Assembly (NCBI GenBank): GCA_028404505.1
Contig: JAOOBM010000003.1
Span: 12,330 to 76,329 of the forward strand
DNA length: 64,000 bases
From: Acidimicrobiaceae bacterium
GTDB lineage: Bacteria > Actinomycetota > Acidimicrobiia > Actinomarinales > Actinomarinaceae
Direction of reading: 5' to 3'
Below the pieces are notes generated by a model. That model made no database searches, was not told the origin of the DNA, and was given only the letters and a program-made list of their open reading frames with translations. The translations under genes were made by a program, and so were the position numbers. Positions 2-50,392 of this stretch are shown piece by piece (within the stretch, counting starts at the first letter, position 1; every line of letters starts with the position of its first letter).

Positions 2-484
2 AACTTAAAAAAAGTTGATTACAAAGAATTTAATCTATCGAATAAAAATCAAAAATTTTTATCAAAATTAATAGAAGGAAAAAAAATATGTACATATATT
101 CCATTGGACTCTGAACTAGATATTAATTTATTTTTAAATACATTCATAGAAATTCAAACAACTTTTCTTGATAATAATGAGTTGAATGTTTGTCTTTTGC
201 AAGAACCTTTTGTAATCAACAAACTTAAAATTTTGGAACCACAAAATATAGAAATAGCTGACAGTACTGAAATATTTTTTGTACCAGGATTGGCATTTTC
301 AAAATCTGGAGTACGACTCGGTAGAGGAAAGGGTCTCTATGATAAACTTTTGGCAAAATATCCAAATTCAATAAAGGTAGGAATATGTTCAAGTTTGAAT
401 CTTTTTGATAATTTACCACAAGAATCACACGATATAATTATGGATTATGTTCTCACAGAGAACGAAAATTTTAAAATACATTAA
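2..484 (+). CDS. 5-formyltetrahydrofolate cyclo-ligase (MTHFS family), 5' end outside window
   Basis: GLAFSKSGVRLGRGKGLYDKLL matches the MTHFS signature. The same frame is open from nt 2 (NLKKVDYKEF...ICTYIPLDSELD), so the TTG at 104 in the ORF track is probably internal. Confidence 0.75.
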   Translation, partial: NLKKVDYKEFNLSNKNQKFLSKLIEGKKICTYIPLDSELDINLFLNTFIEIQTTFLDNNELNVCLLQEPFVINKLKILEPQNIEIADSTEIFFVPGLAFSKSGVRLGRGKGLYDKLLAKYPNSIKVGICSSLNLFDNLPQESHDIIMDYVLTENENFKIH

Positions 485-495
485 AATTACAAACT

Positions 496-1536
496 ATGGA
501 TATAAGCATCAATGTTGGTTATTTTGGACCACATATATCAGAAGACAAAGATCTAATTAAAAAATTAGATGATATTGGTGTATCTTGTGTCTGGACAGCT
601 GAAGCCTATGGCTTCGATGCGGTAACACCTCTTGCATATTTCTCCGCTTTGACTGAGAATATGAACATTGGTTCAGGAATTATGCAAATTCCTGCAAGAA
701 CACCAGCAATGACAGCAATGACAGCTGTAACACTTGATCAAATGTCTAAAGGAAGATTTAGATTAGGTTTAGGTGTTTCAGGTCCACAGGTGGTGGAAGG
801 TTGGCACGGTGTACCATATGGAAAGCCACTTAAAAAAACTAGAGAATATGTAGAACTAGTTCGAAAAATTATTAGCAGGGATGGAAAAGTTGAACATCAT
901 GGCGATTATTATGATTTGCCATTAGAAGGTGAAGGTACAACAGGCTTAGGAAAGCCCTTGAAGCTGATTGAGCAACCGTTCAGAAGTGAAATTCCAATAT
1001 ATTTAGCTGCAGTAGGGTTAAAAAATGTAGAGCTAACTGCAGAAATTGCAGAAGGATGGTTGCCATTTATGTACTCACCAATTAAGGGTGAGGATATTTA
1101 TAAAGAATCGCTAAGTAATGGATTTAAAAAATCTGGTGATTCTGATAAAAAAGATAATTTTGAAATTGTAACAACTGTATTTGGTCGTGTTTGTGAAGAG
1201 GACGAAATTGACCAATATCTTTATCCGGCTAGAAATATTTATACCTTGTATGTAGGAGGCATGGGCGCAAAGTCAAAAAACTTCTATTACAACTTGTTTT
1301 GTGAATATGGATATGAGGATATTGCAGATGAACTTCAAAATCTTTATTTAAGTGGTAATAAAAAAGAATCTGAAGATCTTTTTCCAAAAGAGTTATTAAA
1401 TGAATTAACACTTGTAGGTACCAAAAAAGACATTGAAAAGAAGTTGGAAACTTGGAAAGAAAGTAACATAACTGAGATATCTCTCTCACTTCCAATTGAT
1501 TTTGAAACGGTTAAATTCATAAAAGAATTACTGTGA
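496..1536 (+). CDS. LLM-class (luciferase-like) F420/flavin-dependent oxidoreductase
   Basis: 346 aa. Typical LLM features: WTAEAYGFDA, GRFRLGLGVSGPQVVEGWHG, C-terminal GT..(D/E)I..KL. Its stop overlaps the next start (GTGA). Confidence 0.8.
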   Translation: MDISINVGYFGPHISEDKDLIKKLDDIGVSCVWTAEAYGFDAVTPLAYFSALTENMNIGSGIMQIPARTPAMTAMTAVTLDQMSKGRFRLGLGVSGPQVVEGWHGVPYGKPLKKTREYVELVRKIISRDGKVEHHGDYYDLPLEGEGTTGLGKPLKLIEQPFRSEIPIYLAAVGLKNVELTAEIAEGWLPFMYSPIKGEDIYKESLSNGFKKSGDSDKKDNFEIVTTVFGRVCEEDEIDQYLYPARNIYTLYVGGMGAKSKNFYYNLFCEYGYEDIADELQNLYLSGNKKESEDLFPKELLNELTLVGTKKDIEKKLETWKESNITEISLSLPIDFETVKFIKELL

Positions 1537-2876
1537 AAATTCTTCTAACATCTTTCTATGATTTAGGTAAACAACCAAAAATTATCGCTGAAATTGTTGA
1601 TAAGTATAAATCTGAAAATATTCAATTTGATATAGTCGACTTTTCGATAGATAGTCCTGAAATAAAAATATATGAATATGATGTACTTGGTATATATGCA
1701 CCAATGCATACTGCAACAGTTCTATCAATTGAATTTTTAAAGAACATAACCCTACCAAAGAAAGTTTTTACATTTGGTCTCTATGGTGCTGTTCTTGAGG
1801 ATTTTGATTCATCAATTAAATACTTCAGCAATATTGAAAATGGTGAGTTAGATACATTTTTAGATATTAATAAAAATGAGTTATTCTCTTTGAAAAATAA
1901 CATACCAAACAGAGATATTCTTCCTGATATATCTAATTATGCCCACCTGGTAAACGGATCTTCAAATTTAATAGCAGGATCAGTTGAAACAACCTATGGC
2001 TGTAAACATTCATGCACACATTGTCCAATACCAATCTCATTTCAGGGTAGTTTTAAGACCTACAATTTAGAAAAAATATTACTTGATGTTGAAAATCAAG
2101 TTAAATCTGGAGCAATGCATATATCATTTAATGATCCAGATTTTTTTAATGGTCCAATTCATGCTCTTAAAGTGCTTGAAATTCTTAATTCAAAATTTCC
2201 AGATGTCACTTACGATTCAACTATAAAGGTAGAGCATATTATTAAGTATGAAAAATACTTTAAAGAACTATCTTCTTTAAATATGATTTTTGTTATCTCA
2301 GCATTTGAAACCACAAATGATGAAGTTTTAACAATTTTAGAAAAAAATCATTCTAGTACTGATTTAGCCAATGCTATAGAGATATCACAAATCAATAATA
2401 TGGATATTCGTCCTACATGGATGCCTTTTTCTCCATGGACAAATCAAAGCGATTTAATTGACATAATTAATTTAATTGAAAAATATAACCTTAGAGAAAC
2501 TGTTGATCCTATACAATTAACCATCAAATTATTGATCCCTAAGCATTCACTTATTCTCCAAAGGTTAGAAATAAAAGGATATCTAAAAGATTATGACAAA
2601 AATTCATTGAGTTACGTGTGGGATTATAGAAATGAGGAAGTAAATAAATTACAAGTTTCTCTTTTTAATTACTTATTGGAAACCCCTGATTTAGATGAGC
2701 ATAGTCAGTATCTAGGTATGGTTAAAATAATTGAAAATATGACACAATCCAATTTGAAATTAGATATAAATTACACATATAAAAATGTACCAAAATTATC
2801 AGAAACTTGGTTTTGTTGTGCAGAGCCAAGTCAGATACAACTTGATAGAATAAAAACTAACACAGCATTGATATGA
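1533..2876 (+). CDS. radical SAM protein with N-terminal Rossmann/B12-binding-like domain and C-terminal CCAEP tail motif
   Basis: CxxxCxxC cluster motif (YGCKHSCTHCPIP) and C-terminal WFCCAEPSQ. From memory this resembles the CUAEP/CCAEP-tail radical SAM family. Coupled on both sides (GTGA, ATGA). Confidence 0.75.
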   Translation: MKILLTSFYDLGKQPKIIAEIVDKYKSENIQFDIVDFSIDSPEIKIYEYDVLGIYAPMHTATVLSIEFLKNITLPKKVFTFGLYGAVLEDFDSSIKYFSNIENGELDTFLDINKNELFSLKNNIPNRDILPDISNYAHLVNGSSNLIAGSVETTYGCKHSCTHCPIPISFQGSFKTYNLEKILLDVENQVKSGAMHISFNDPDFFNGPIHALKVLEILNSKFPDVTYDSTIKVEHIIKYEKYFKELSSLNMIFVISAFETTNDEVLTILEKNHSSTDLANAIEISQINNMDIRPTWMPFSPWTNQSDLIDIINLIEKYNLRETVDPIQLTIKLLIPKHSLILQRLEIKGYLKDYDKNSLSYVWDYRNEEVNKLQVSLFNYLLETPDLDEHSQYLGMVKIIENMTQSNLKLDINYTYKNVPKLSETWFCCAEPSQIQLDRIKTNTALI

Positions 2877-8790: not shown

Positions 8791-10056
8791 ATGAAAAATA
8801 AAATTTTTGCTTTAGTCGATTGTAATAACTTTTACGCATCTTGTGAGAGGGTGTTTAATCCAAAACTGGAAGGAAAACCTATCGTTGTTCTCTCAAACAA
8901 CGATGGATGTATTGTTGCAAGGTCAAATGAGGCAAAAGCGTTAGGCATTCCAATGGGTGCTCCACTATTTAAATATGAACAATTGATAAAGAGAAACAAT
9001 GTCCATGTATTTTCATCGAACTATACATTTTATGGAGACATGTCAGCAAGAGTAATGACATCTTTACGATCAATAGTTGGAGACATCGAAATCTATTCAA
9101 TTGATGAAGCTTTTTTAGATATTAGCAAGTTTTATTATTGCGACTTAACGGAGACAGCGAATGAAATACGGAGACTAATAAAGCAGTGGACAGGGATACC
9201 AATCTCGATTGGTATTGGACCCTCAAAAACCCTGGCAAAAGCTGCAAACAGACAAGCAAAAAAATATGAGGAATCAAATGTCTTTGATATACGTGAAGAG
9301 TCAGAGAGAGTAAGGGTTCTAAAAGACCTCGAACTAGAAGATATATGGGGTATCTCAACAAGATGGGGTAGAAGACTAAGAAAAATTGGTATAAATTCAG
9401 CATATGAACTCTCAACAGGAGATCCAAGACAGATACGAAAGACTCTGAGCATTGTAGGAGAGAGAATCTATCATGAGCTAAATGGCATATCATGTATGCA
9501 AATTGAAGAAGTTAAAAATAAGAAAAACATAATTTCTTCAAAGTCGTTTGGGAAAAAAGTAACAAAAGTATATGAACTTGAAGAAGCTGTTTCAACATAC
9601 GTTGCAAGAGCTTGTGAAAAGTTACGAGCTCAGAATTCAAGAGCTGGAGGTATTCACGTATTTTTAAGAACAAGTCCATTTATAGAAGATGAAAGAAAAT
9701 ATAGCAATGGAATGAGCTCTTTCTTTACAATTCCAACTAGTAATACTTCAAAAATAATCAAAGAAGCGAAAAGATTAACAAATAAACTTTTTTTGCCAAA
9801 TTATGAGTATCAGAAAATAGGCGTAATACTCTTGGATATATCTGATGCCAAATATGAACAGTTTAGTTTCTATGAGCATGAGAATTATGAGAGATCCGAT
9901 ATTCTCATGGATTCACTAGACCAGTTAAATGATAGATTTGGAAATGGAACTCTATTTATGGGAGCACAGGGAATTCAAAAAAACTGGAAAATGCGAGCTG
10001 ATAGAAAATCAGCTGCTTACACAACCAAATTGATAGACATTCCTAAAGTTGATTAA
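8791..10056 (+). CDS. umuC: Y-family DNA polymerase, UmuC-like
   Basis: N-terminus [48 protein letters not shown] is classic UmuC/Y-family. SIDEAFLD catalytic motif. Confidence 0.85.
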
Positions 10057-15401: not shown

Positions 15402-15770
15402 ATGAAATTCAATCATACATTTATTGGCAGAAAGCTAATAGGGGAGAATATTTTACTCCTAGAAACAGTTGGACGTAAATCAAATAAATTAAGAAAAACA
15501 CCTTTGACTTATGTTGTAATTGATGAAGGATATCTTGTTGCAGCCTCATATGGAGGGAGAGACAAAACTCCTGATTGGTTTTTCAACATAAATACAGACA
15601 AAGTAAAAATACTCGTAAATAAGGAATACAAAGATGCAAAGCCTTTAATTGTTGATGAACTTGAAAAGGAAGAGTATTGGAAACTATTAACTGATTTCTA
15701 TCCTACTTTTAATCTTTACAGGTCAAAAACAGAGAGAGATATTCCTTTAGTAAAACTTGTTACAAACTAG
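15402..15770 (+). CDS. deazaflavin (F420)-dependent nitroreductase family protein (DDN/DUF385)
   Basis: LLLETVGRKSNKLRKTPLTYVV...AASYGGRDKTPDWFFNI matches the DDN family core. The start is uncertain because the family-like N-terminal helix (WPTWLVKLITTAHSNI) lies upstream of the first ATG. Confidence 0.7.
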   Translation: MKFNHTFIGRKLIGENILLLETVGRKSNKLRKTPLTYVVIDEGYLVAASYGGRDKTPDWFFNINTDKVKILVNKEYKDAKPLIVDELEKEEYWKLLTDFYPTFNLYRSKTERDIPLVKLVTN

Positions 15771-16746
15771 GTTTTATATTTGGACCGTTTCTTACCACGG
15801 TATTCCATAGTGTCGAATAATGATCAAGGTCTTCAGGATTTACATGAGGAAGAACCATATTTTTCCATGTTTCATGCAAAGGATCTGAAGCATTTTTGTA
15901 CAAATCTAATCCAACGGGAATTCTTTCTACAACTGTTCTAAGACTCATTGGCGTTTCAATATTGATGCTTATGTCATCAGATAAAAATGAGTTATTAATT
16001 TCAATAGCCAATTTGATTATTAGATCTGTGAATTCATTTTGTAATTTTGGATATCGTTTTTTAAATATTGATTCAAGCTGTTCTTTGTTAGGAAAAGGTT
16101 TATCCCAAATAACCCATCGATCAGCAAATGCTTTGTTTAGAGTTTGTGTTCCCGCATAATCTCTTAAGCTCGTTGGATTCATTGTTCCAAAAATATATGA
16201 GTCATTTCTTAATTCAATAACTTCTCCATTAGGAAGCTCTAGTTTTTTATGTCTATCTAATAGTGAATGTAAAGCAAATAAAACTTCTGGTCCAGCTGCA
16301 TTTAATTCTGATAGATTAATAATGGAAGGTCCTCTTAGTGCTCTGGTTAATTCGCCATCCTGCCATTTGGAATCTGTTCCACCAACTCCATCTCCATATA
16401 ATTGAACTGAACCAAGTAAAGTCACGTCTCTAACTTCACCTGATAAAGGAATCCGATAGTATGGATAATTTAATTTTGCAGCTAATTGCTCTATGTCGTG
16501 ATCCTTACCTGTTCCCATATGTCCTTTAAGTGCAATATGAATCGGGATTTCATTTTTAAACGTATCTTCTTTGCTCTTAATAATTTGAGCTAATTTATAT
16601 TGAATTCCAAAGTCTACATAATTTTTATCTAACTCAGGTATGCGTTCGGCTCTTGATTCATAATCAGGAATTGATTTTGATAGCTTACATTCATTTAGCT
16701 TTATATCACCCTTACCAGTTGGGTTTTTAAATATCTGTTCAGCCAT
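15760..16746 (-). CDS. CobS-like / MoxR-class AAA+ ATPase with atypical Walker motifs
   Basis: GHMGTGKDHDIEQLAAKLNYPYYRIPL resembles CobS GYHGTGKSTHIEQVAARLNWP (recalled from memory). ATG at 16746 shares one nt with the upstream TGA. The track uses the TTG at 16749. Confidence 0.7.
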   Translation of the reverse strand: MAEQIFKNPTGKGDIKLNECKLSKSIPDYESRAERIPELDKNYVDFGIQYKLAQIIKSKEDTFKNEIPIHIALKGHMGTGKDHDIEQLAAKLNYPYYRIPLSGEVRDVTLLGSVQLYGDGVGGTDSKWQDGELTRALRGPSIINLSELNAAGPEVLFALHSLLDRHKKLELPNGEVIELRNDSYIFGTMNPTSLRDYAGTQTLNKAFADRWVIWDKPFPNKEQLESIFKKRYPKLQNEFTDLIIKLAIEINNSFLSDDISINIETPMSLRTVVERIPVGLDLYKNASDPLHETWKNMVLPHVNPEDLDHYSTLWNTVVRNGPNIKPSL

Positions 16747-18698
16747 CAAGCAACTCCTGTAGATTCTTCAATATTCTTTATAAGTATATCCTTTGTGATG
16801 TTTACTATTGAATGAATTAACTCTTCAGGTTCATTTATTTGGGTTTTATTTATATATTCTTTCCAAGTGCCTCTTTCTCCAATACCTATCCCAATTACAT
16901 CAATCCCAACTTTGGAAGCATAATTGATAGAACTTTTTAAATCCTCAAGCGATCCTCTTGTCATACCGTCTGACAGTACGGCTAAAAGTTTTGTTTTAGA
17001 ACCTTTTTCTAGAAGTCTTTTTGTAGAAAACATTATATTTCTTTCATCAACATTGGTTCCTCTTTCAAACATGCTTGCAGGTGGGTGATCCAAATTAGAT
17101 TCTATTTTGTCTAATGACTCCCTTAAGTTTCTTGAAAATTCAATTAAACCTATAAACTTTTCATAATTTTCTTTCCATGAATCATCAAACTTTTTAATAA
17201 AATAATGATTTGTTGTATTGAAATAATATTCAGCATTCGATCCATAATTTGTATTTAGCATCGAGGAAACAGCCATCTTTCTCTTTAAATATAATTCTTC
17301 ATTTTCTAATTCATCTGCAGCGAAGCTCCTATTAAAAATTGCTACTTCAAAATCAATATCTAATTCATGGCAGATTTGTGCAAGATAACTTGCTCCTATT
17401 AATGCCGCAGAGAGTGACCAGGGATAGAAATCACCTTTATCTTTTTCAAGCATTGATCCACTTCCATCAATTAGTAAAGATACCGCATAAGATTTGTTTG
17501 AAAGCCGCTGTTTTTGTTCAAACATTCTTTCATACCTACCTGATGCAAGCATTAGAGGAACATGTGGTGATAAATCGCCCTGATCATAACCACTGATTCT
17601 TAGCCTTTTTTTGTTATGTATAAAGTAAGGTTTTATTTTGTTTGTAACTTTGAATACGGGCAGATCCCATTCTTCCAACAGGGAGTTATAAGTATTTAAT
17701 CCATTTGTATATAAATTTTTAAATGATTTTGGTAAATTTGTACTCAGTAATTTTGATACTTTACCATTTGGAAGATAAACGGTTGAGGATGTTCCAACTT
17801 TTGAAACATGATCATCCATAAAGTTAAGCTTTTCATCTTCTGAATCTGCACCCTTTTTACCTAAGAATTTTTCCAAGGTATTACCTGAAGTAATGTTTGT
17901 ACTAGAAGGAATTAAGACTTTGTTTAAATCATCAATCACGGAGTCTTCAAAATTTTCTATTGATTCTCTACGTTCTCCCAATGTTTGGTTATCAACATCT
18001 GGTAATAGATTGTATCTTCTACAAATATCTGTAATTTCTATCGTTATATCAATAGTGTCTTCTATCAAGTTTTTATCATATGAAAAATTATCTAATACTC
18101 TTAAAGTTTCTTTTAAAGGTTCTTTAATATTTTTTGGATACTTTTCTACATCTAATTCAACATATCCTGTGATGTTATGAAAAAGCAATGTTAAAAATTT
18201 ATTGAAAGGCTTTAAATTTTTTATGTTGATACTAGATTCTTTATAAATATCCTCGAGGATTGATCTAAGCCCGTTAAAGTTTTTTACAAATTGAAACTCA
18301 TCATAGGAATGCACAAGTATTTCAAAAATGTATTTTCCAAATGGACCTGCGAGAACTTCAAGAACTTCATCAATGTTAGTTAACCCTTCAGTGTCATCTT
18401 TATATTTTGTGAGATCTTCATCAACATTAAAATTATATTCTTCCATAGAATGGATAGCCTCATGGACTACAGTTCCAATTATTAATTCCTTAAATTCAAG
18501 TTCTGAATCTGAAACTGCATTAACCAAAATAGATGGATTTATGTTGATCTCGTTCTTGTTTTTGCTTTTGGTTTTACCAAGATTAATAACAATATTTGCA
18601 TTATCAGTTTCGGATTGTATTAGTCGTGTAATTGCTGGACTAATTTTTTGAAATATTTCAATAATTTGAGTTTCTAAAGTTTTTTTCTTAAATTCCAT
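16746..18698 (-). CDS. VWA-domain protein with N-terminal HExxH region (CobT-like or metallopeptidase+VWA DUF2201-like)
   Basis: C-terminal VWA with MIDAS motif LLIDGSGSM and LAVLSDGMTRG. N-terminal VVHEAIHSMEEY is an HExxH motif. 650 aa, coupled to the AAA gene. Confidence 0.65.
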   Translation of the reverse strand: MEFKKKTLETQIIEIFQKISPAITRLIQSETDNANIVINLGKTKSKNKNEININPSILVNAVSDSELEFKELIIGTVVHEAIHSMEEYNFNVDEDLTKYKDDTEGLTNIDEVLEVLAGPFGKYIFEILVHSYDEFQFVKNFNGLRSILEDIYKESSINIKNLKPFNKFLTLLFHNITGYVELDVEKYPKNIKEPLKETLRVLDNFSYDKNLIEDTIDITIEITDICRRYNLLPDVDNQTLGERRESIENFEDSVIDDLNKVLIPSSTNITSGNTLEKFLGKKGADSEDEKLNFMDDHVSKVGTSSTVYLPNGKVSKLLSTNLPKSFKNLYTNGLNTYNSLLEEWDLPVFKVTNKIKPYFIHNKKRLRISGYDQGDLSPHVPLMLASGRYERMFEQKQRLSNKSYAVSLLIDGSGSMLEKDKGDFYPWSLSAALIGASYLAQICHELDIDFEVAIFNRSFAADELENEELYLKRKMAVSSMLNTNYGSNAEYYFNTTNHYFIKKFDDSWKENYEKFIGLIEFSRNLRESLDKIESNLDHPPASMFERGTNVDERNIMFSTKRLLEKGSKTKLLAVLSDGMTRGSLEDLKSSINYASKVGIDVIGIGIGERGTWKEYINKTQINEPEELIHSIVNITKDILIKNIEESTGVA

Positions 18699-22769: not shown

Positions 22770-23594
22770 TTAACTTTTTACTACTTTTCCTTTAATAATT
22801 CTATTTCTTATTGCTGCTGAAATTGTATCTGCTGTAAGAACTAAAATAATTGTACATATAAGTACAGTACCTGCTCTAGGAAAATCTCTAAACCTCAGTT
22901 GATTTATAAGTTCTTGACCAACTCCACCCGCGCCTACAACACCTAATACTGCAGAAGCTCTCAAGTTTATTTCAAACCTATAAAGCCAATAAGAAGTTAT
23001 TGTTGGCATTACTTGAGGAATTACACCAAATGAAAGCTCATTTAATTTGGATCCACCTGAAGATTTTATAGCTTCTAAAGGTCCTTCATCTATTCCCTCG
23101 ATAACCTCTGAAGATAATTTTCCTAATGTGCCAATTGAATGTATGCCTACTGCTAATGTTCCAGTAAATGGACCAAGTCCAGTAATTGGTAAGAAAACAA
23201 ATGCTAAAATTAATTCAGGAAATGCCCTTATTGCATTTAATATTTGTTTAGTTGTTCTACTCACAATTCCAACAGCAACATTTTGGGCAGCTAAAAAAGA
23301 TACTGGAAAGCTAAATATTGCTCCAATTACTGTTCCAGCCCATGCTATAAATAAGGATTCAAAAACTTTAGGTATTATTCTGTCAAATGCTTCTTGACTT
23401 AGATCAAGAGGAAACATAGCTCCTACTAATATACCAATTTGCCTTGGAGCATCTATTATTCTTTCTAAAGTTATCTCAAGTCCAGCTGCTGACCATAATG
23501 ACCCAATTATTATTAATGTGGTTAATGAATATTTGAGTATTCGTTGACTTAATGGCTGTTGTGGAATCTTCATATAATCCTTCTTCTTATCCAT
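22770..23594 (-). CDS. phnE: phosphonate ABC transporter permease
   Basis: PhnE-type permease pattern (EAIKSSGGSKLNELSFGVIPQVMP, GAGGVGQEL). Confidence 0.85.
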   Translation of the reverse strand: MDKKKDYMKIPQQPLSQRILKYSLTTLIIIGSLWSAAGLEITLERIIDAPRQIGILVGAMFPLDLSQEAFDRIIPKVFESLFIAWAGTVIGAIFSFPVSFLAAQNVAVGIVSRTTKQILNAIRAFPELILAFVFLPITGLGPFTGTLAVGIHSIGTLGKLSSEVIEGIDEGPLEAIKSSGGSKLNELSFGVIPQVMPTITSYWLYRFEINLRASAVLGVVGAGGVGQELINQLRFRDFPRAGTVLICTIILVLTADTISAAIRNRIIKGKVVKS

Positions 23595-24358
23595 ACACTG
23601 AATTGTTCAATAAGAATGACAACTACAAGAATTATTACAATAATTGGAGATATTCTATCAAACCTAAGAAAGATTCTTTGTGTTTCAATAATTCTACCAA
23701 CCCCACCTGCACCAACTAAACCAAGAATGACACTAGCTCTTATGCATAACTCAAAAATGTAAAGAAAATAAGCAGTATAATTTGGCAACACTTGTGGTAA
23801 CGCAGAAGTAAAAACTGATTGATTATGTGATGCTCCCGTTGCTTTTGCAGCTTCCATAGGTCCAGGATCTATACTGTCAATAGTCTCAGACAGAAGCTTA
23901 CCCATTATTGCAAGTGAAAACATAATTAATGCAAGAACACCAGCAAATGGTCCTATCCCCACTGCAACAGTGAATAACATAGCCCAAAACAAATCTGGAA
24001 TTGTTCTTACAAGATTTAAAAACGATTTATATAAAAAATAAGAGTATTTGTTTAAATTTGTAGCTCTTGATGCATAAAAAGCTAATGGTAAAGCAACTGC
24101 ACATCCAACGATACTTGCAAGGATTGCTATCTGTACAGTTTCGAGTAATGCATCTGCTGTGTTTTCCCAAGCCCATTGCCATTTGGGATTAAATAATGGA
24201 TCTGTAACAATTGCTCTGTTTGCTAGATTTTCCCTAAAGTCTTGAAGGTTGAAACCTATTCTTCTAAAAGAAAAAATTGTAAACAGTATTGCTGCAGGTA
24301 TACCTAAAGTTACAAGGTACGTTGGTGCCGGTTTTTTTGGTATATTAATCATCACCAA
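23570..24358 (-). CDS. phnE: phosphonate ABC transporter permease (second copy)
   Basis: EAAKATGASHNQSVFTSALPQVLP and GAGGVGRII. Paralogous to the downstream permease. Confidence 0.85.
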   Translation of the reverse strand: MVMINIPKKPAPTYLVTLGIPAAILFTIFSFRRIGFNLQDFRENLANRAIVTDPLFNPKWQWAWENTADALLETVQIAILASIVGCAVALPLAFYASRATNLNKYSYFLYKSFLNLVRTIPDLFWAMLFTVAVGIGPFAGVLALIMFSLAIMGKLLSETIDSIDPGPMEAAKATGASHNQSVFTSALPQVLPNYTAYFLYIFELCIRASVILGLVGAGGVGRIIETQRIFLRFDRISPIIVIILVVVILIEQFSVWIRRRII

Positions 24359-25112
24359 TTAGATCAGAAGATTTAATTGATCTTCCATATATATTTTCAA
24401 AATCTTCATCGGAAACATCGTTTACATTCCCATCAAATACAAGTTTCCCATCTCTAAGTCCAATAAGTCTATCTCCAAATTCCTTTGCCAAATCAAGAAA
24501 ATGCAAATTAACAATCGTGGTTATTCCAAGTTCAGTATTTACTTTCTTTAAATAACTCATTACAACTCTTGATGTAATTGGATCTAAGGAAGCAACAGGC
24601 TCATCAGCCAACATAACTTTTGGTTTTTGAGATAAAGCTCTGGCAATACCTACTCTTTGTTGTTGACCACCGGATAAGTTTGATGCTCTCACATATGCTT
24701 TTTCTAATATCTCAACCTGGTTTAAGGCTTCAAATGCCATTTCTTTTTGATCTTTAGGCCAAAGTCCCAGTATTGATCTAATTGTTGAAATATTACTCAA
24801 TCTACCAGTAAGAACATTTTTTAAAACGGTTGACCTATTAACAAGATTAAATGTTTGAAAAATCATTCCAATCTGTGATCTAATTTTTTTCAATTCCTTT
24901 TTTTTTGCACTCGTAACATTTTTACCTTCCAAATAGACAGAACCAGTTGAAGGTTTAACTAGATTATTTACTGTTCTTAGAAGGGTAGATTTACCTGCAC
25001 CAGAAAGACCTACAATAATGATAAAATCTCCATCATTGATCTCGAGGTTTAGATCTTTTAGTGCTTCAACGCCTCCTGGATAGGTGACGCTTACATTTTC
25101 AAATTTAATCAT
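24345..25112 (-). CDS. phnC: phosphonate ABC transporter ATP-binding protein
   Basis: Walker A GLSGAGKST, signature LSGGQQQRV, Walker B MLADEP. PhnC-type N-terminus. Confidence 0.9.
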   Translation of the reverse strand: MIKFENVSVTYPGGVEALKDLNLEINDGDFIIIVGLSGAGKSTLLRTVNNLVKPSTGSVYLEGKNVTSAKKKELKKIRSQIGMIFQTFNLVNRSTVLKNVLTGRLSNISTIRSILGLWPKDQKEMAFEALNQVEILEKAYVRASNLSGGQQQRVGIARALSQKPKVMLADEPVASLDPITSRVVMSYLKKVNTELGITTIVNLHFLDLAKEFGDRLIGLRDGKLVFDGNVNDVSDEDFENIYGRSIKSSDLIGDD

Positions 25113-25124
25113 AATAAGAATTTT

Positions 25125-25150
25125 AACCGGGCTGAAAAATCAACCCGGTT
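25125..25150 (-). other. GC-rich intercistronic hairpin between phnD and phnC
   Basis: AACCGGG (25125..25131) pairs with CCCGGTT (25144..25150) around a 12-nt loop. No clear U-tract on the coding strand. Confidence 0.4.
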
Positions 25151-25160
25151 AAAAAATCTT

Positions 25161-26294
25161 TTAATCGTCGTAAAGCCCGAATTCTTCAGCTGCTTGTTTT
25201 ACAACATCAAATTCTGAGTTATCTGCAGGTACGACATCTGTCCAGCCATAAATTTCATCCATAACTGCGGCTCCTTCATCAGTAGCCATGTAGTCAGATA
25301 ATATTTGATATATTTTTGATTTTATATCTTCTGGTAAGTCAGATCTTACAGCAACAACATCATTAGGAATTTCTGCTGAGATTCCTATAGCAATAACTTT
25401 TTCACCAACATCTGGGTTAGTTTTTCTTAAAGTTCTTCTTGCATCATCATAAGTAACGCCAAATTTAGCATCGCCATTGTACAATCCGGAAATAACTCCG
25501 TCATGAGATCCTGCAAAAACTTGCGTGATATCAGATGTGTAATCAATACCCATATTTTTCAACTGTAATGAAGGATATAGATATCCAGATGTTGAACCCT
25601 CTTCAACAAATAATACCTTTTCACCCCTTAATACATTTAAATCTGCCTCACATGCATATCCTGGGCTGACTGTTACATCAACTCCATCAATATTTCTAAC
25701 CTCTGGAATTTTTCCGTCATCACCAAAGGTCCAACCAACTTGTAATGCTTTAACATCTGGAGATTCTGTTTCAGAACCTAAAATAAGTGTTGGAACACCG
25801 TCAATATTTTCAAATGCTCCGATTACAGGTGGCGAATCACAAACACTCGCATCTGTTGTCCAGAAATTTGCGTGGTATGAACCAGAACCATATCTTACAA
25901 CTTTAGCAATTGCCTCAATTCTTGTTGGGAAAACATTTAGTGCATTAACATAGCCCAAAGTATTAAATGCTCCAATGTCAGCTTGGCCAGATCCCATTGC
26001 AACTAATAAACCAGAAAAGTCACTAGTTACAAATCCTTCAACCTCAATACCAAGTCCATCAGTTAAAACTTTCATTAATGGTTTGATATTGTCTTGAAGA
26101 TCAGCTTGTTCTGCACTTGGAATGAAACCGAATGTAATTTTATCTAAAACTTCAGCTGTAGTTACTGCTGGAGAATCTAGAGTTTCTACCTCTTCTTCAA
26201 CAACTGCAGATTCTTCTACTGTCTCTTCTTCAGTACCACCGCAAGCAGCTAGTACAAGTGAGAGACAAAGAAGTATAAGAAATGTTTTTTTCAC
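25161..26294 (-). CDS. phnD: phosphate/phosphite/phosphonate ABC transporter substrate-binding lipoprotein
   Basis: Lipobox LVLAACGG, E/V-rich linker, PhnD-like core (FGFIPS, YHANFWT). GTG start with GGAGGA upstream. Confidence 0.85.
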   Translation of the reverse strand: MKKTFLILLCLSLVLAACGGTEEETVEESAVVEEEVETLDSPAVTTAEVLDKITFGFIPSAEQADLQDNIKPLMKVLTDGLGIEVEGFVTSDFSGLLVAMGSGQADIGAFNTLGYVNALNVFPTRIEAIAKVVRYGSGSYHANFWTTDASVCDSPPVIGAFENIDGVPTLILGSETESPDVKALQVGWTFGDDGKIPEVRNIDGVDVTVSPGYACEADLNVLRGEKVLFVEEGSTSGYLYPSLQLKNMGIDYTSDITQVFAGSHDGVISGLYNGDAKFGVTYDDARRTLRKTNPDVGEKVIAIGISAEIPNDVVAVRSDLPEDIKSKIYQILSDYMATDEGAAVMDEIYGWTDVVPADNSEFDVVKQAAEEFGLYDD

Positions 26295-26374: not shown

Positions 26375-26836
26375 TTATAAATCGTTTGGTACGTATCCAT
26401 ATTCTCGCGAAAGAATACTTCCATCTGTATCGATAATTACAGAAATTGGTTGACCAATAATTTTTAAATTATCTCTCATATCAGATGTAGAAAACCCAAT
26501 TGTAATTTCACCTTTTAGATTTTCTGAAACCCAACTCATAGTTGAATCCACATCACTATGTGCCAATGCGATTACATCATAGTTTTGGCTAACTGCTGCT
26601 AGATTAGCTTCTAAGAGAGGCAACTCCTCTCTACAAATTCCTCAATAATCAGCCCAGAAAACAACAAGTGTTTTCTTATTAGTAAGATCTTCATTAACTA
26701 AATTTCCATTTTCATCTTCGTATATAAGTTCTTCAATTGAAGATGCTGCTGCACTATTTGTCGGTTCATTTGAGGTACTATCCGATCCTGATGAACAAAA
26801 AGATAGTAAAAGTAAAAGTATGATTGTTTTTCTCAT
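26375..26836 (-). CDS. TlpA/ResA-like thioredoxin-fold lipoprotein with in-frame TGA at the first redox Cys (candidate selenoprotein; alternatively a pseudogene)
   Basis: ORFs 26642..26836 and 26375..26623 share a frame. The junction reads VVFWADY-TGA-GICREELPLLEA, a U-G-I-C version of WCxxC. Signal peptide MRKTIILLLLLSFCSSG. Confidence 0.55.
26614..26632 (-). promoter_or_regulatory. candidate bacterial SECIS hairpin
   Basis: In the mRNA, AGAGAGG-AGUUG-CCUCUCU (7-bp stem, 5-nt loop containing GU) starts 9 nt after the UGA at 26642..26644. Confidence 0.4.
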
Positions 26837-28166: not shown

Positions 28167-29237
28167 ATGGATAAAGACAGGGCAAAAAAACTAGATACAG
28201 TTTTTGATCAAATAGAAAAACAATTCGGTGAAGGCTCGTTAATGAAGCTTGGTGCTGATAACATCAAAAAAATACCAGCTATTTCGACAGGAGCACTCTC
28301 AATTGATTTAGCTTTAGGTATCGGCGGAGTTCCAAAAGGTAGAGTTATTGAAATTTATGGACCTGAAGCTTCAGGTAAAACTACATTATCTCTCCATGTT
28401 GCAGCTGAAGCACAGAAAGCAGGTGGTGTGGCAGCATTTATTGATGCTGAACATGCTCTTGATCCGGTATATGCGAGAGCATTAGGTGTTGATGTAGATG
28501 AACTACTTGTTTCTCAACCAGATACTGGTGAGCAAGCGCTTGAAATTGCAGACATGTTAATTCAATCTGGAGGTGTAGATTTAGTAGTCATTGACTCTGT
28601 TGCAGCATTAGTTCCAAAAGCTGAGATTGAAGGCGAAATGGGTGATACTCATGTTGGTCTCCAGGCTCGATTGATGTCACAAGCTTTGCGTAAATTAACT
28701 GGTTCAATCAATAAATCAGGTACAACTGTGATCTTTATTAATCAAATCCGTGAAAAAATTGGTGTTATGTGGGGATCTCCTGAAACAACCAGTGGTGGTA
28801 GAGCTCTTAAATTTTATTCATCTGTAAGGATTGATGTAAGAAGAATAGAGACATTAAAGGTTGGACCAGAACAAATAGGAAACCGAGTAAGAGCCAAGAT
28901 AGTTAAAAATAAAGTCGCTCCACCATTTAAGGAAGCAGAGTTTGATATTATGTTTGGCCAAGGTATATCCAGAGAAGGTAGCCTTTTAGATGTTGCAGTT
29001 GAGCACGGTATTGCTAGAAAAGCAGGAGCTTGGTTTACATATGATGAAGTACAACTTGGTCAAGGTAAAGAGAATTCTAAGCGTTTTCTAAGAGAGAATC
29101 CTGACCTTGCTTTACAGCTAGAGACAGATGTCTATAAAGCTGTAGGTCTTATTGAATCAGATGAAGTCGAGGTTGTAGAAGATGAATCAACTGAAAATGA
29201 AGAGGAATCTTCAGAAGAGACTAAAAACAAAAAATAA
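28167..29237 (+). CDS. recA: recombinase RecA
   Basis: Unmistakable RecA sequence ([20 protein letters not shown], acidic C-terminal tail). AAGGAG SD 6 nt upstream. Confidence 0.97.
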
Positions 29238-31477: not shown

Positions 31478-32198
31478 ATCTTATATGTCAGGAACAGGCA
31501 ATGATTTTATATGTACTAAGTACGATCGAGACTTGTCAGATATAGAAATTATTTCAATTGTAAGTGATTCACTTTTTCCTATTGATGGAGTCATATTGGT
31601 AGAGGGCATAGATATTTCAACAGTGAAAATGCACTATTTTAATAATGATGGAACTCCTGCTGAATTATGTGTTAATGGTGTGCGTTGCGCAGCAAAATTT
31701 GCAGTAGACAATAATTTAGTGGATACTAAAAAATTGATTGTTAAAGCTCCAGTTGGTGATATAAAAGCATTTGTAGAAAATGATTATGTAAAAATTGAAG
31801 CACCTCTTCCTACGACTGGTGACAGTATCGAAATTGATAATTATATATGTACGACTAGTGAAGTAGGAAATCCTCATCTAATGGTTGAGGTCGATGATGT
31901 AGAGAAATTTGATCTCGAAAAATTTTCAGTAAATGCCAGAAAGCTAGATGTATTTTCTAATGGTATAAATGTTGAAATCTTTTCAGTTGTTGATCGTAAA
32001 TTTATTTACGCAAGAGTAAACGAAAGGGGAGTTGGCGAAACAGACGCTTGTGGTTCTGGAGCTTTAGCTTTGTTTACTTATTTAAGAGAAATTAATAAAG
32101 TTGATGATAATGCAATCGTTTTATATCCTGGTGGAGATCTCGAACTATCTTTTGAAAAAGAAAAGTTGTATCTTAAAGGTGAAGTTACATATCTCTAA
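31467..32198 (+). CDS. dapF: diaminopimelate epimerase
   Basis: SGTGNDFI, catalytic Cys contexts ELCVNGVRCAA and ETDACGSGALA. The start could instead be the ATG at 31485. Confidence 0.8.
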   Translation: MVNESYMSGTGNDFICTKYDRDLSDIEIISIVSDSLFPIDGVILVEGIDISTVKMHYFNNDGTPAELCVNGVRCAAKFAVDNNLVDTKKLIVKAPVGDIKAFVENDYVKIEAPLPTTGDSIEIDNYICTTSEVGNPHLMVEVDDVEKFDLEKFSVNARKLDVFSNGINVEIFSVVDRKFIYARVNERGVGETDACGSGALALFTYLREINKVDDNAIVLYPGGDLELSFEKEKLYLKGEVTYL

Positions 32199-32772
32199 TT
32201 AAAGAAACAACTTTTCCTATAGGTTGTATATTTTCATTAACTGGAATTTTTTCATAGTTCTTATTTGCAGGTACTAGGTATTGTTTACCCTGAATATTTT
32301 TGAGAAATTTAATCGTACCTTCTGAATTATTTATAAGAAATGCACCTATATCTCCATTTTTAATTGGTTCATTTTTATTAATAATAACTAAATCTTTTTC
32401 ATGAATTCCCTCATCAATCATCGAATCACCAGAAACTGATAAAGCAAATAAATCAGATTTTTCATCAGTATCTGGATAATTCACAGTTCCTATAACGTTT
32501 TCTTCAGCCATAAGTAAAGACCCTGCAGCAATTTCTCCTAGTATTGGAATTTTTTTGTTTGATAGTTGGTTGTTTACAGTCAATGCACGAGATTTTTTAT
32601 AGTTTTTTTGGAGTAGTCCCGATTGGATTAGTTTTTCAAGGTGATATTGGACTGTGCTTGTAGATTTAAGACTTACACCTTCACAAATTTCTCTTACTGA
32701 AGGTGCAAATCCATTTTTTTCGATAAATATATTTATAAAATTTAAAATATTTTTTTGTTTTTCGGAAACCAT
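32185..32772 (-). CDS. lexA: SOS repressor LexA
   Basis: N-terminal winged HTH (PSVREICEGVSLKSTSTVQYHLEKL), cleavage site IAAG, SGDSM Ser and GTIKFL Lys. Confidence 0.9.
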   Translation of the reverse strand: MVSEKQKNILNFINIFIEKNGFAPSVREICEGVSLKSTSTVQYHLEKLIQSGLLQKNYKKSRALTVNNQLSNKKIPILGEIAAGSLLMAEENVIGTVNYPDTDEKSDLFALSVSGDSMIDEGIHEKDLVIINKNEPIKNGDIGAFLINNSEGTIKFLKNIQGKQYLVPANKNYEKIPVNENIQPIGKVVSLIRDM

Positions 32773-35964: not shown

Positions 35965-36609
35965 ATGTGTGGACGTTATTACTTATCAATTGATCTAGGA
36001 AATTTATCATTCGTAAATAATCTCAACGAGTATGATTTTGAAGATAATTTTAATATTGCTCCACAGGCAAGTGTTCCTATTGTAATCGATAATAACTTAG
36101 TGAATTGTACATGGGGGTATTATCCATCTTGGCTAAAGGATCAGAGTAATTCTAAGCCACTGTTCAACACAAGGTTTGAGTCATTGCTTGAGAAGAAAAC
36201 ATTTATTTCAGCTTTCAAAAAAAGTAGATGTTTAGTTCCAATATCTGGATGGTATGAATGGAAGATCATAGATGATGTAAAACAACCTTTTTTCTTTAAG
36301 CATAAAGAAAATCAAAATATGTTTGCTGCAGGGTTATATTGGCCAAGATCAGATGGATCAACAGAGTTTACGATTATTACAACAGCTGCTCCGTTAGAAA
36401 TTAATGAGGTGCATGATCGATCACCATTAATTCTTGATGACGTATCTATGGGTATTTGGTTATCCGATGACAACCCAGAGGATATTCATGTAAATATTTC
36501 ACATGATTTTGGTCATATTATTGAAAACTATCAAGTTACAAGATCAGTAAACAATCCAAAGAACAATAATGCATCGCTTATCGAAGAATTCAATGAAGTT
36601 CCATTTTAA
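35965..36609 (+). CDS. SOS response-associated peptidase (SRAP/YedK, abasic-site processing)
   Basis: N-terminal MCGRY with catalytic Cys2, NIAPQ, WYEW and HDRSPLIL motifs. Confidence 0.85.
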   Translation: MCGRYYLSIDLGNLSFVNNLNEYDFEDNFNIAPQASVPIVIDNNLVNCTWGYYPSWLKDQSNSKPLFNTRFESLLEKKTFISAFKKSRCLVPISGWYEWKIIDDVKQPFFFKHKENQNMFAAGLYWPRSDGSTEFTIITTAAPLEINEVHDRSPLILDDVSMGIWLSDDNPEDIHVNISHDFGHIIENYQVTRSVNNPKNNNASLIEEFNEVPF

Positions 36610-48703: not shown

Positions 48704-49657
48704 ATGTGTATGAAGGTTTACTTACAAGCAAGGGGAAGTTATGAATCGTTGCTTGATTTATCAATATGGTGTGAAAATAATAATATTGATCGTATTGGAT
48801 TACCCGATCATTATATCGTTGGTAAACAACGAAAAGATAAAAATGAACCAGCACCAGCTTTAGATTTATTAACCGCAATAGCTGGATTAGTTCGCGATAC
48901 AGAGTCAATGATATACTCCGTTTTAGTATCTCCAATTACATTCAGACATCCAAGTGTTCTTCTTAAAATGGCTACCACTATTAATGAAATGGCTAAGAAA
49001 AGATTTAGATTAGGTGTTGGAACTGGATGGTTAGAGATTGAGCATGAAGTATTTGGTATATATTTTCCAGATCTTAAAACAAGGTTTGAAATGTTACACG
49101 AGGCACTTGAATATATAACTCAAGGTATGTATGGAGAGAATAAGGGGATGAATGGTAAATATTATCAACTTGATAATGTTCCTTTACTTCCAAGTGCTCA
49201 AGGTGAAGTCCCAATAATTATTGGCGGTGGGGGAAAGAAAAAAACACCTACTCTTGCTGGTAAATATGCTGATGAATTTAATATCTATGCAGGACCTAAA
49301 GATGTACTAAAAAACAGTATTGACCTTTTCTATGATGTGGCAAATGAAAACAATAGGGATGTAAATAAACTTGAAGTTTCCACTGCCTGTCCTCCTGTAG
49401 TTGGATTTACAAAAAATGAAGTTGATAAATCATTAATTGGTGCAGCTAAATCTCTCATCCAGCCTAAAGATGAAATTGCTAAGAACTGGAAAGATAGAAG
49501 TTATTTATACGGAACTCCCGAAGAAATAGCTGAGACAATTGTGATGTGGAAAGATGCTGGAATTCAGTCCGTATATCTTCAGTTACTTGATTTAGACAAA
49601 AATAAAAGAGAGAACGATATTGAAGTTATTAGAAAAGCTGTTGAATTAGCTAGTTAA
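48704..49657 (+). CDS. LLM-class F420-dependent oxidoreductase
   Basis: RFRLGVGTGWLEIEHEVFG and C-terminal GTPEEIAETI..W...G. Luciferase-like family. Confidence 0.75.
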   Translation: MCMKVYLQARGSYESLLDLSIWCENNNIDRIGLPDHYIVGKQRKDKNEPAPALDLLTAIAGLVRDTESMIYSVLVSPITFRHPSVLLKMATTINEMAKKRFRLGVGTGWLEIEHEVFGIYFPDLKTRFEMLHEALEYITQGMYGENKGMNGKYYQLDNVPLLPSAQGEVPIIIGGGGKKKTPTLAGKYADEFNIYAGPKDVLKNSIDLFYDVANENNRDVNKLEVSTACPPVVGFTKNEVDKSLIGAAKSLIQPKDEIAKNWKDRSYLYGTPEEIAETIVMWKDAGIQSVYLQLLDLDKNKRENDIEVIRKAVELAS

Positions 49658-50392
49658 AATTCTAAGAGAGAGCAATATTGAGACTATTACAAGTATTGGT
49701 CTTATTAATTTGTCACCAACCTTTATTGCAGACTTTGAACCCAGATATGCTCCACCTGTTCCTCCTACTGCCATAATTAATCCGAGCTCCCACATTACGA
49801 AGCCTTGAAATGCAAATATAATAAATGCTGCAAAGTTAGAAGCAAAGTTTAATAATTTTGATGTTGCTGTTGATTCAAGAAGGGATTGATTCTTGAACAC
49901 GAGAAATAACATTACAAAAAATGAACCTGTCCCTGGTCCAAAAAAACCATCATAAAAACCAATTAGAAAAATTAGTGGTGTTAATAAAACTATATAATTG
50001 CTTAAGTCTGTCTTAACCTGTCTATTGATTATAAAAAATACGGCAACTGTTATTAATAAGATCGGAATTAAAGTTCTTAATATTTCATCCGAAAGTCTAC
50101 TAACCATTAAAGTTCCTGCTGATGATCCAATAAAAGACAATATAAAATATTTATTTCTATGTATATCTGTCAAATACCCGTTAACGTAGTAATTTCTTGA
50201 TGATGTAAATGTACTGAAAGAGGATTGAAATTTATTTGTACCTAACACTGTTAAAGGATTTATGCCTACTAACAACATCGATGGGGTAGTTAAAAGGCCA
50301 CCTCCACCAGCAATAGAGTCTATAAATGAAGCTAGTATAGAAATTCCAAAAAGAAATAAATATACTGCTTCAGTGTTATTTGTAATATCCAT
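49646..50392 (-). CDS. sulfite exporter TauE/SafE family protein
   Basis: Polytopic, with the repeated GGGG/GxGxG patterns (IAGGGGLLTTP, FFGPGTGSF) typical of TauE/SafE. Confidence 0.8.
   Translation of the reverse strand: MDITNNTEAVYLFLFGISILASFIDSIAGGGGLLTTPSMLLVGINPLTVLGTNKFQSSFSTFTSSRNYYVNGYLTDIHRNKYFILSFIGSSAGTLMVSRLSDEILRTLIPILLITVAVFFIINRQVKTDLSNYIVLLTPLIFLIGFYDGFFGPGTGSFFVMLFLVFKNQSLLESTATSKLLNFASNFAAFIIFAFQGFVMWELGLIMAVGGTGGAYLGSKSAIKVGDKLIRPILVIVSILLSLRILTS

Follow-up and report, generated by a model that had tools for sequence, protein, structure and literature searches.

Selenoproteins with a thioredoxin (Trx)-like or peroxiredoxin (Prx)-like fold and a UxxC motif have been known since 2005–2008 and, in ocean metagenomes, count among the selenoproteins of highest abundance (PMC2398784, PMC1794560, PMC13188914). 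The Global Ocean Sampling (GOS) families of this class include Prx-like 1 (pfam00578), Prx-like 3 (pfam08534, marine-enriched), and Trx-like 1 (COG0526) (PMC2398784, Table 2). Herein, we describe a predicted selenoprotein gene in a 64,000-nucleotide stretch of DNA from an Acidimicrobiaceae bacterium of the host lineage Candidatus Actinomarina (contig JAOOBM010000003.1 of GCA_028404505.1, positions 12,330 to 76,329, forward strand; this whole stretch is called the window below). The gene lies at 26375..26836 on the minus strand and carries an in-frame TGA at the position of a redox cysteine. It very likely encodes a genuine selenoprotein, namely an exported, probably lipid-anchored reductase of the TlpA/ResA/CcmG type in which selenocysteine (Sec, U) stands for the nucleophilic Cys in the motif U65-G-I-C68. 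The first-pass annotation of the window, made from the letters alone, had named UxxC Trx-like selenoproteins as a known class of marine metagenomes, and the three GOS families bear this out.

The predicted protein resembles the GOS UxxC families of Zhang and Gladyshev in its Trx fold, in Sec at the first position of UxxC aligned to Cys in many homologs, in its matches to both PF00578 and PF08534, in its surface-ocean abundance, and in a bacterial Sec insertion sequence (bSECIS) directly after the UGA. Those families are based on anonymous reads or on members of the Deltaproteobacteria and Firmicutes, whereas the protein studied here is assigned to the order Actinomarinales and occurs order-wide. 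It also differs from them by its predicted lipoprotein signal peptide and its TlpA/ResA-type block, FWADY-U-G-I-C-R-E-E-L-P. Identity with a member of one of the GOS families is plausible. The gene thus plausibly links part of the anonymous UxxC Prx/Trx-like reads of the ocean (Sargasso Sea, GOS) to a major taxon.

The best structure and sequence matches were ResA (Bacillus subtilis), TlpA (Bradyrhizobium), CcmG/DsbE, Etrx1/2 (Streptococcus pneumoniae lipoproteins), StoA, and SdbA. With this group the protein shares an N-terminal β-hairpin followed by a Trx fold, the block W/Y-C-x-x-C-x-x-E-x-P, a cis-Pro loop (GQP), and predicted membrane-anchored export. We take Y-U-G-I-C-R-E-E-L-P and the later GQP loop to correspond to W-C-E-P-C-K-K-E-F-P and the cis-Pro of ResA. 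Unlike these proteins, it has Sec for the nucleophilic Cys and Tyr for the usual preceding Trp, and its gene adjoins a phosphonate-type ABC transporter instead of clustering with ccdA/resBC or sco. The ResA-like WAxxUGC selenoprotein family NF041054 is likewise TlpA/ResA-like with a WAxxU context and gave a weak match of 27.7 bits. However, the motif here is U-G-I-C, not U-G-C, the length is 153 aa against a 354-position profile, and the score lies far from the 300-bit cutoff, so the protein is not a member of that family.

The hairpin next to the TGA resembles the SECIS of Escherichia coli fdhF and the bSECISearch model in being a stem-loop within the coding sequence just 3′ of the UGA, with G-U in a small loop and with spacing and energy in range. 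It is unlike the fdhF type in its compact, perfect stem of 6–7 bp with no bulged U, in its minimum spacing of 16 nt, and in its invariant AGUU(G/A) loop. Moreover, the cognate SelB is reported to be divergent, and the element has neither primary-sequence similarity to the fdhF type nor an Rfam match.

Sec use in Actinomarina has only just been reported, in the 2026 preprint "Actinomarina, resolved" (bioRxiv 10.64898/2026.04.03.716425). According to that study, all 84 complete Actinomarina genomes, which are extremely streamlined at about 1 Mb, carry selC, selA, selD, and a divergent selB, and selenouridine synthase was not detected. Deep-Sep predicted about five selenoproteins per genome, mostly uncharacterized, in 69 "families", and Rfam SECIS models failed in the genus (bioRxiv 10.64898/2026.04.03.716425). 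The preprint does not mention Trx-like or TlpA-like proteins, and the sequence described here was not found in its supplement. The class itself is known; what is new is the family assignment, the order-wide conservation, a delimited SECIS backed by compensatory change, the controls with Cys forms, and the finding that databases hold the protein with Trp or as fragments. One selenoprotein target of Actinomarina thereby gains a family and an order-wide range, where the preprint had left most of its predictions uncharacterized and gave no SECIS. That an extremely streamlined genome keeps a predicted exported selenoenzyme throughout the order is also relevant to how much selenium surface-ocean picoplankton require.

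An In-Frame TGA at the Redox Cysteine

The gene comprises 153 codons and a TAA stop and specifies a TlpA/ResA/CcmG-like Trx fold. It appears as two open reading frames (ORFs) on the minus strand, an N-terminal one of 64 aa (26642..26836) ending at the TGA at 26644..26642 and a C-terminal one of 82 aa (26375..26623) starting at TTG in the same frame. Nothing but the TGA and six sense codons (GGA ATT TGT AGA GAG GAG) lies between them. The 153-aa read-through product begins MRKTIILLLLLSFCSSGS, crosses the junction as KKTLVVFWADY-[TGA]-GICREELPLLEANLAAV, and ends YGYVPNDL. The in-frame TGA (26642..26644, minus strand) is the predicted Sec codon for residue 65, which opens the U-G-I-C redox motif. 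C68, encoded by TGT at 26635..26633 (minus strand), is the resolving Cys of UxxC, and the active site of the read-through protein reads FWADY-U-G-I-C-REELP.

The first-pass annotation had described these two ORFs as one frame split by the TGA and six codons, and its coordinates were correct. It had also placed the TGA at the N-terminal redox Cys, and the alignments agree. In the PDB chains of DsbE, TlpA, and Etrx, the active-site Cys (Cys1 of WCxxC) is aligned to the TGA. The same holds for the first Cys of 19 outgroup genes that carry the peptide CREELPLLE as WCxPCREELPLLE, and, in the wider family clustered at 50% identity, Cys stands at this position in 139 CxxC motif matches among the representatives.

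A scan of one genome for each GTDB species returned 24 loci, all from Candidatus Actinomarina/Actinomarinales (single-cell genomes, metagenome-assembled genomes (MAGs), and the OCS155 cluster), with 47–98% amino acid identity to the query. TGA was present at the codon in 24/24 loci, in the context FWADY-TGA-G-[I/L/S]-C-R-[E/Q]-E-L-P. One of these sequences (L026, PAEE01000009.1) is labeled "Methanobacteriota archaeon MED870"; it bears the Actinomarinales gene with its hairpin and is probably mis-binned. TGA was also found at 14 metagenome loci, among them L001–L008, L010, L058, L059, L082, and L083. Over all loci, the tally was 38 TGA, 5 TGY, and 0 TGG, so relatives have TGA or TGY at this codon and never a disrupted frame. 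Among the distinct gene sequences of the clade (n = 34), 33 had TGA and one had TGC.

Selection was assessed on a codon alignment of these 34 distinct sequences. The median pairwise ratio of nonsynonymous to synonymous substitution rates (dN/dS) was 0.17 before the TGA and 0.10 after it, and neither extra stops nor frameshifts were found past the TGA in any of the 34. The C-terminal two-thirds is the best-conserved portion of the protein, and at eight loci an identical protein was encoded by different DNA. This purifying selection on an intact downstream frame is incompatible with a pseudogene or with termination at codon 65. As judged from the pattern of substitution, translation is carried on past the TGA.

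Cys forms were also observed among closer relatives. Within the FWADY subfamily, two more distant lineages have Cys, as FWADY-C-PT-C (P0126) and FWADY-C-IT-C (P0128). These genes (P0126, locus L054; P0128, loci L055–L057) lie on contigs of 35–38% GC in another context, gyrA – DUF3566 – gene – ABC/FtsX, and may be either the orthologs of a sister lineage or paralogs carried in Actinomarinales genomes. The only Cys codon within the otherwise all-TGA clade is the TGC at positions 461..463 of locus L009 (LUMQ01006488.1 of GCA_001628845.1), which keeps the complete downstream hairpin. Sec may have been replaced by Cys very recently here, or the codon may be a variant within the population or an error in the consensus. 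Retention of the hairpin is expected if the change is very recent, and a remnant SECIS after a Sec-to-Cys change has been described (PMC1794560, Fig. 4).

Public protein entries give a different picture of the active site. Among about 5.8 billion proteins searched, 283 homologs were found, of which the best 120 were full length with 76–96% identity; at the TGA position, these 120 had W in 119 cases and C in one. We read the underlying DNA. All six "W" proteins checked (P0034, P0114, P0121, P0122, P0002, and P0113) carried TGA, and the DNA of P0034 had TGA in each of eight independent assemblies, so a genuine Trp in the homologs was rejected. The sole C protein, P0008, is the product of locus L009. 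The stored Trp is an artefact of metagenomic gene callers that apply translation table 4 to short, low-GC contigs. The 63-aa and 83-aa fragments found among cluster representatives (P0125, P0129, and P0130) come from other callers, which divide the gene. That annotation would miss the gene or break it in two had been anticipated, and the public entries are indeed either fragments or full-length proteins with Trp at the TGA. Family models or counts built from public proteins now carry a wrong active site (Trp in 119/120 close homologs), and the predicted selenoprotein gene of an abundant ocean bacterium is split or mistranslated in public databases.

The window has a GC content of 32%, and an altered genetic code (table 4 or 25) was considered as a candidate. 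TGA terminates 11 of the 56 window ORFs of at least 150 aa, several of them in tightly packed or overlapping gene pairs, and no in-frame TGA occurs in the 18,314 sense codons of those 56 ORFs. Tables 4 and 25 are thus excluded. An assembly error had been raised as a concern at the outset. The TGA was recovered independently from single-cell genomes, MAGs, Tara Oceans, ENA, JGI, Logan, and NCBI assemblies, and its recurrence in unrelated assemblies rules out a sequencing or assembly error.

A Conserved Hairpin Directly after the TGA

Nine nucleotides after the TGA, the mRNA can form a bSECIS-type hairpin (26614..26632, minus strand), which is also read as the codons R69-E-E-L-P-L-L75. The nine-nucleotide spacer GGAAUUUGU (26633..26641, minus strand) encodes G66, I67, and C68. 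The stem consists of the 5′ arm AGAGAGG (26632..26626) and the 3′ arm CCUCUCU (26620..26614), which pair perfectly over 7 bp, and the apical loop is AGUUG (26625..26621), starting 16 nt past the UGA. The folding energy of the isolated hairpin was –9.5 kcal/mol. The hairpin is present at the coordinates given by the first-pass annotation, which had considered it to be in the right place for a bacterial SECIS.

The hairpin was compared with the bSECIS model (criteria from the review PMC13188914, Fig. 2) over 19 distinct sequences. The model allows an apical loop of 3–9 nt and an upper stem of 4–16 bp, and the observed values were 5 nt and 6–7 bp. The model requires a G at loop position 1 or 2, in most cases with G or U as the next base; the observed loop AGUU(G/A) has G at position 2, then U. 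The UGA-to-loop spacing was exactly 16 nt in 19/19 sequences, inside the model range of 16–37 nt, and the minimum free energy (MFE) was –8.4 to –9.5 kcal/mol in 18/19, against a criterion of ≤ –7.5 kcal/mol. The spacer was 9 nt in 19/19, with its codons free to vary synonymously.

In the alignment of the 19 sequences, the six core pairs were formed in 114/114 cells. Three sequences carry a compensatory change of a G-C pair to C-G, in which AGAGAGG/CCUCUCU becomes AGACAGG/CCUGUCU or AGACGGG/CCUGUCU. This change swaps two amino acids (E to Q/R and L to V) and preserves the helix. G·U toggling was observed at three further stem pairs. The covariation score was 0.194 vs 0.131 ± 0.018 for shuffled alignments; none of 500 shuffles reached it, and it exceeded the score of every slid register.

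The stem codons GAG, GAG, CCT, and CTC are constant save at the compensated pair, and GAG and CTC are minor codons of the genome (23% and 3.8%). Where hairpin codons do change synonymously, the site lies in the loop, beyond the stem, at a G·U-compatible position, or at the outermost pair, and neighboring codons vary freely in their synonymous positions. The 19 Cys-form genes with the same CREELPLLE peptide served as controls, and only 1–2 bp pair in register in them. Cys-form members of the FWADY subfamily fold at –3 to –5 kcal/mol. Within the window, 47 in-frame TGAs have an open frame on both sides, and the one at 26642..26644 has the best downstream hairpin. No comparable hairpin was found at the other 46, most of which lie in noncoding frames of other genes. 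With its 6–7 bp stem, AGUU(G/A) loop, and 16-nt spacing, this SECIS could serve as a query for further selenoprotein genes in the lineage and as a tool for work on its divergent SelB. Taken together, these sequence features make it highly probable that the UGA is decoded as Sec with a functional SECIS.

Probable Selenocysteine Decoding and Its Alternatives

A decoding mechanism can be proposed from these features. At UGA65, the hairpin 9 nt downstream would serve as the SECIS and recruit SelB·GTP·Sec-tRNA(Sec), so that Sec is inserted instead of termination taking place. The SECIS role is assigned to the hairpin because of its conservation, its covariation, and its fit to the bSECIS model, with the machinery reported at the genus level. 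The ribosome would next melt the hairpin and read it as R-E-E-L-P-L-L, the conserved block that follows CxxC in the family. These 19 nt would therefore be under dual protein and RNA constraint, as the pattern of codon invariance indicates. Both steps are strongly supported by the comparative sequence data. The remaining steps are inferred by analogy. The signal peptide would direct export and lipidation at Cys14, so that, judging from the sequence, the domain would sit at the outer surface of the cytoplasmic membrane. If the protein works as ResA, TlpA, and Etrx do, the selenolate would attack a substrate disulfide (or sulfenate), Cys68 would resolve the selenenylsulfide, and re-reduction would proceed through a membrane shuttle of the CcdA/DsbD type.

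Several observations weigh against this reading, some of which concern the Sec machinery. ARAGORN and Rfam detected no tRNA-Sec in the 64-kb window (only tRNA-Gly, tRNA-Cys, and tRNA-Val) and none in 24 related Actinomarinales loci of 10–20 kb. Neither NCBIfam/Pfam scoring of 45 window ORFs nor tblastn with marine SelD revealed selA, selB, or selD in the window. The 24 related loci likewise showed no gene of the Sec machinery. Sec machinery for the source genome thus rests on the genus-level report; the 84/84 genomes answer the objection for the genus, not for the source genome. Other points concern the hairpin. Rfam gave no SECIS or other meaningful family in the whole window (gathering thresholds) or in the hairpin region (E ≤ 10). 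The MFE of one sequence (L058) was –5.9 kcal/mol, short of the –7.5 criterion. Two-sided covariation is confined to one pair, in three sequences of related lineages. The hairpin is short, and when REELPLL is encoded with randomly drawn synonymous codons, 2.3% of draws give a stem of at least 6 bp. Against shuffles, the 66-nt region has an unremarkable folding energy (z = –0.80), so the case rests on conservation and covariation.

The remaining points against bear on the protein and its specific role. NCBIfam equivalog scores were far under their cutoffs for TlpA (NF047696, 34.7 bits vs 230), ResA (NF002854, 33.6 vs 170), DsbE (TIGR00385, 32.9 vs 123), and StoA (NF041202, 28.9 vs 210), which makes the protein a superfamily member and not an ortholog of characterized TlpA, ResA, DsbE, or StoA. 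The AlphaFold2 model was of moderate quality, with a predicted local distance difference test score (pLDDT) of 68, low at the active site, and a predicted template modeling score (pTM) of 0.63. No ccdA/dsbD, resB/C, sco, or msr gene was found among the 45 window ORFs scanned.

A metagenome scan with the pattern MRLT...G-U-G-C-K for Actinomarina SelD found Sec-form SelD only on contigs of 43–44% GC, which belong to another marine lineage. These SelD genes (L061–L063, L065, L067–L069, L072, and L074–L081) encode a 344-aa protein beginning MRLTQFSHGAGUGCKLSP... and have their own conserved stem-loop past the UGA. The SelD gene of L079, one of the L061–L081 set, is frameshifted.

UGA is the leakiest stop codon, and read-through could in principle proceed with no SECIS at all, a near-cognate tRNA placing Trp or Cys at residue 65 while the hairpin acts as a generic stimulator or a ribosome pause. 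The missing machinery in the window and related loci fits such a scheme, as does the full-length product with W given by gene callers. However, Trp at the nucleophile would wreck the CxxC redox center common to all homologs, and TGG occurs in no relative, while TGC and TGT do. Were Cys intended, a TGY codon would be cheaper and would need no conserved hairpin of rare codons. With the hairpin obeying the bSECIS spacing and loop rules exactly and the full Sec machinery reported for the genus, we consider SECIS-independent read-through improbable. Programmed termination is less probable still. It would yield a 64-aa lipopeptide and, from the TTG in the loop, a separate 82-aa protein, with the hairpin regulating re-initiation. 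ORF callers do list both pieces, the second starting at TTG 26623 inside the loop, and databases hold such fragments (P0125, P0129, and P0130). Yet neither piece could form a Trx fold, as the break falls in the active-site motif between β1 and α1, and the 82-aa piece has no signal peptide. The TTG is replaced by TTA, which is no start codon, in 5/34 sequences, and the six codons from TGA to TTG are strictly conserved as G-[ILS]-C-R-E-E, completing a UxxC motif.

The two other explanations are effectively refuted. A nonsense mutation in a former Cys-type tlpA/resA gene has in its favor that TGA is one substitution from TGC or TGT and that the close relative L009 has TGC. A pseudogene, however, would not show the same TGA in 33/34 distinct sequences across the order, down to 47% amino acid identity, nor a downstream dN/dS of 0.10 with no frameshifts or extra stops, nor conserved synteny, and dead genes are not retained in streamlined genomes of about 1 Mb. 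The W in public gene calls and the low GC (32%) would suit a sequencing or assembly error or a code in which TGA means Trp or Gly (table 4 or 25). Against this stand the independent recovery of the TGA from single-cell genomes, MAGs, Tara, JGI, ENA, and Logan, its use as terminator of 11/56 long ORFs with none in 18,314 sense codons, and the Cys, not Trp or Gly, that homologs have at the position.

Decoding of the UGA as Sec, which we favor, also invites a broader and more tentative proposal. The TlpA-like lipoprotein, along with SelD, might be an "anchor" selenoprotein whose benefit maintains the entire Sec-decoding apparatus in the genomes of about 1 Mb of a bacterial order that ranks with the most abundant in the ocean, with a SECIS carved from the ancestral active-site peptide and a surface selenoenzyme of a photoheterotroph as the product; at present, we regard this as rather doubtful. 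The family-wide C-R-E-E-L-P-L-L block is intrinsically self-complementary at the codon level (GAG-GAG vs CUC-CUC or CCU-CUC). If the proposal is true, few synonymous changes would suffice to create a SelB-binding hairpin of 6–7 bp at just the minimum spacing, and the Cys-to-Sec switch would be unusually easy. The product would then be a lipid-anchored selenoenzyme exported by the Sec translocon to the cell surface, an unusual place for a bacterial selenoprotein.

Protein Family, Export, and Neighboring Genes

Domains were scored with U written as C. Pfam matches were obtained to PF08534 Redoxin (31.4 bits; cutoff 26.6), PF00578 AhpC-TSA (30.9; cutoff 26), and PF00085 Thioredoxin (27.1; cutoff 23.5), and at the domain level the protein belongs to the TlpA/ResA/CcmG-like Trx-fold class (cd02966). 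It forms an isolated subfamily, with 19 of 1.84 billion representatives at E < 1e-10. Profile matches in the PDB were to DsbE (3gl3), 2lja, and TlpA (1jfu). The AlphaFold2 model shows an N-terminal β-hairpin and a Trx fold, with elements in the order β-β-β-α-β-α-β-α-β-β. The top 50 Foldseek matches of this model were all extracytoplasmic reductases, of the DsbE (3gl3), Etrx2, TlpA, ResA, CcmG, StoA, and SdbA types (E 1e-7 to 1e-5; TM about 0.5), and the TlpA neighbors in the list include ScoI and CoxB complexes.

The N-terminus, MRKTIILLLLLSFC followed by SSGS, has the look of a lipoprotein signal. A signal peptide with a lipobox-like end, MRKTIILLLLLSF-C14, is predicted at 26795..26836 (minus strand; codon 14 at 26797..26795). 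The positively charged start (MRK), the hydrophobic core, and Cys14 fit the lipoprotein-type signal peptide of the first-pass annotation, but Phe at –1 is atypical for a lipobox. F13, C14, and S15 are invariant among 23 homologs, and Cys14 is kept in 34/34 gene sequences. From these features, the protein is probably exported and lipid-anchored at Cys14. A general function as an exported thiol-disulfide reductase is likely. Apocytochrome c, the CuA/Sco assembly system, and reductases for methionine sulfoxide or peroxide at the cell surface are candidate substrates. At one divergent TGA-form locus, on a 1-kb contig (L059, 77..598, plus strand), the frame 5′ of the TGA enters a COX15/CtaA-like transmembrane segment and has no lipoprotein signal. 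This segment may hint at a link to cytochrome oxidase assembly through a fusion or anchor swap, or the contig may be chimeric.

On the 3′ side, the gene is followed by phosphonate-type ABC transporter genes assigned by Pfam (binding protein, ATPase, and two permeases; 22770..26294, minus strand), its sole conserved neighbor on that strand. No terminator-like site was found between the selenoprotein gene and these genes, and from this arrangement they may be co-transcribed. On the other side, cinA-recA adjoins the gene divergently. The order miaB-recA-cinA, then tlpA-like – phnD – phnC – phnE, is syntenic across the order and is kept in the most divergent member.

Other genes of the window were examined for Sec. 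The radical SAM gene at 1533..2876 (plus strand) matched NF040546, the CUAEP/CCAEP-tail (seleno)protein family, at 367 bits, under the 500-bit cutoff. Its protein has the Cys form, CCAEP, about 20 residues from the C-terminus, which agrees with the earlier assignment to a Sec/Cys-alternating family in its Cys form. Its neighbors are genes for an F420-dependent LLM oxidoreductase and a flavin reductase. The K07090-type group is a predicted selenoprotein in 49 Actinomarina genomes (bioRxiv 10.64898/2026.04.03.716425). The K07090-type TauE/SafE gene of the window (49646..50392, minus strand; PF01925) has no in-frame TGA; it ends in TAA, with stops upstream of its ATG. No second selenoprotein was found in the window among the TauE/SafE gene, the radical SAM gene, and the other 46 in-frame TGAs.

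Two further features of the window were observed. A 650-aa ORF with no NCBIfam/Pfam match (16746..18698, minus strand) immediately precedes a CobS-like AAA ATPase gene (15760..16749, minus strand; TIGR01650, 66.7 bits, far under cutoff), and the two form an uncharacterized gene pair. SOS/DNA-damage genes are dispersed over the window at 8791..10056 (plus strand), 28167..29237 (plus strand), 32185..32772 (minus strand), and 35965..36609 (plus strand), a set made up of a UmuC-like polymerase, RecA, LexA, and an SRAP peptidase.

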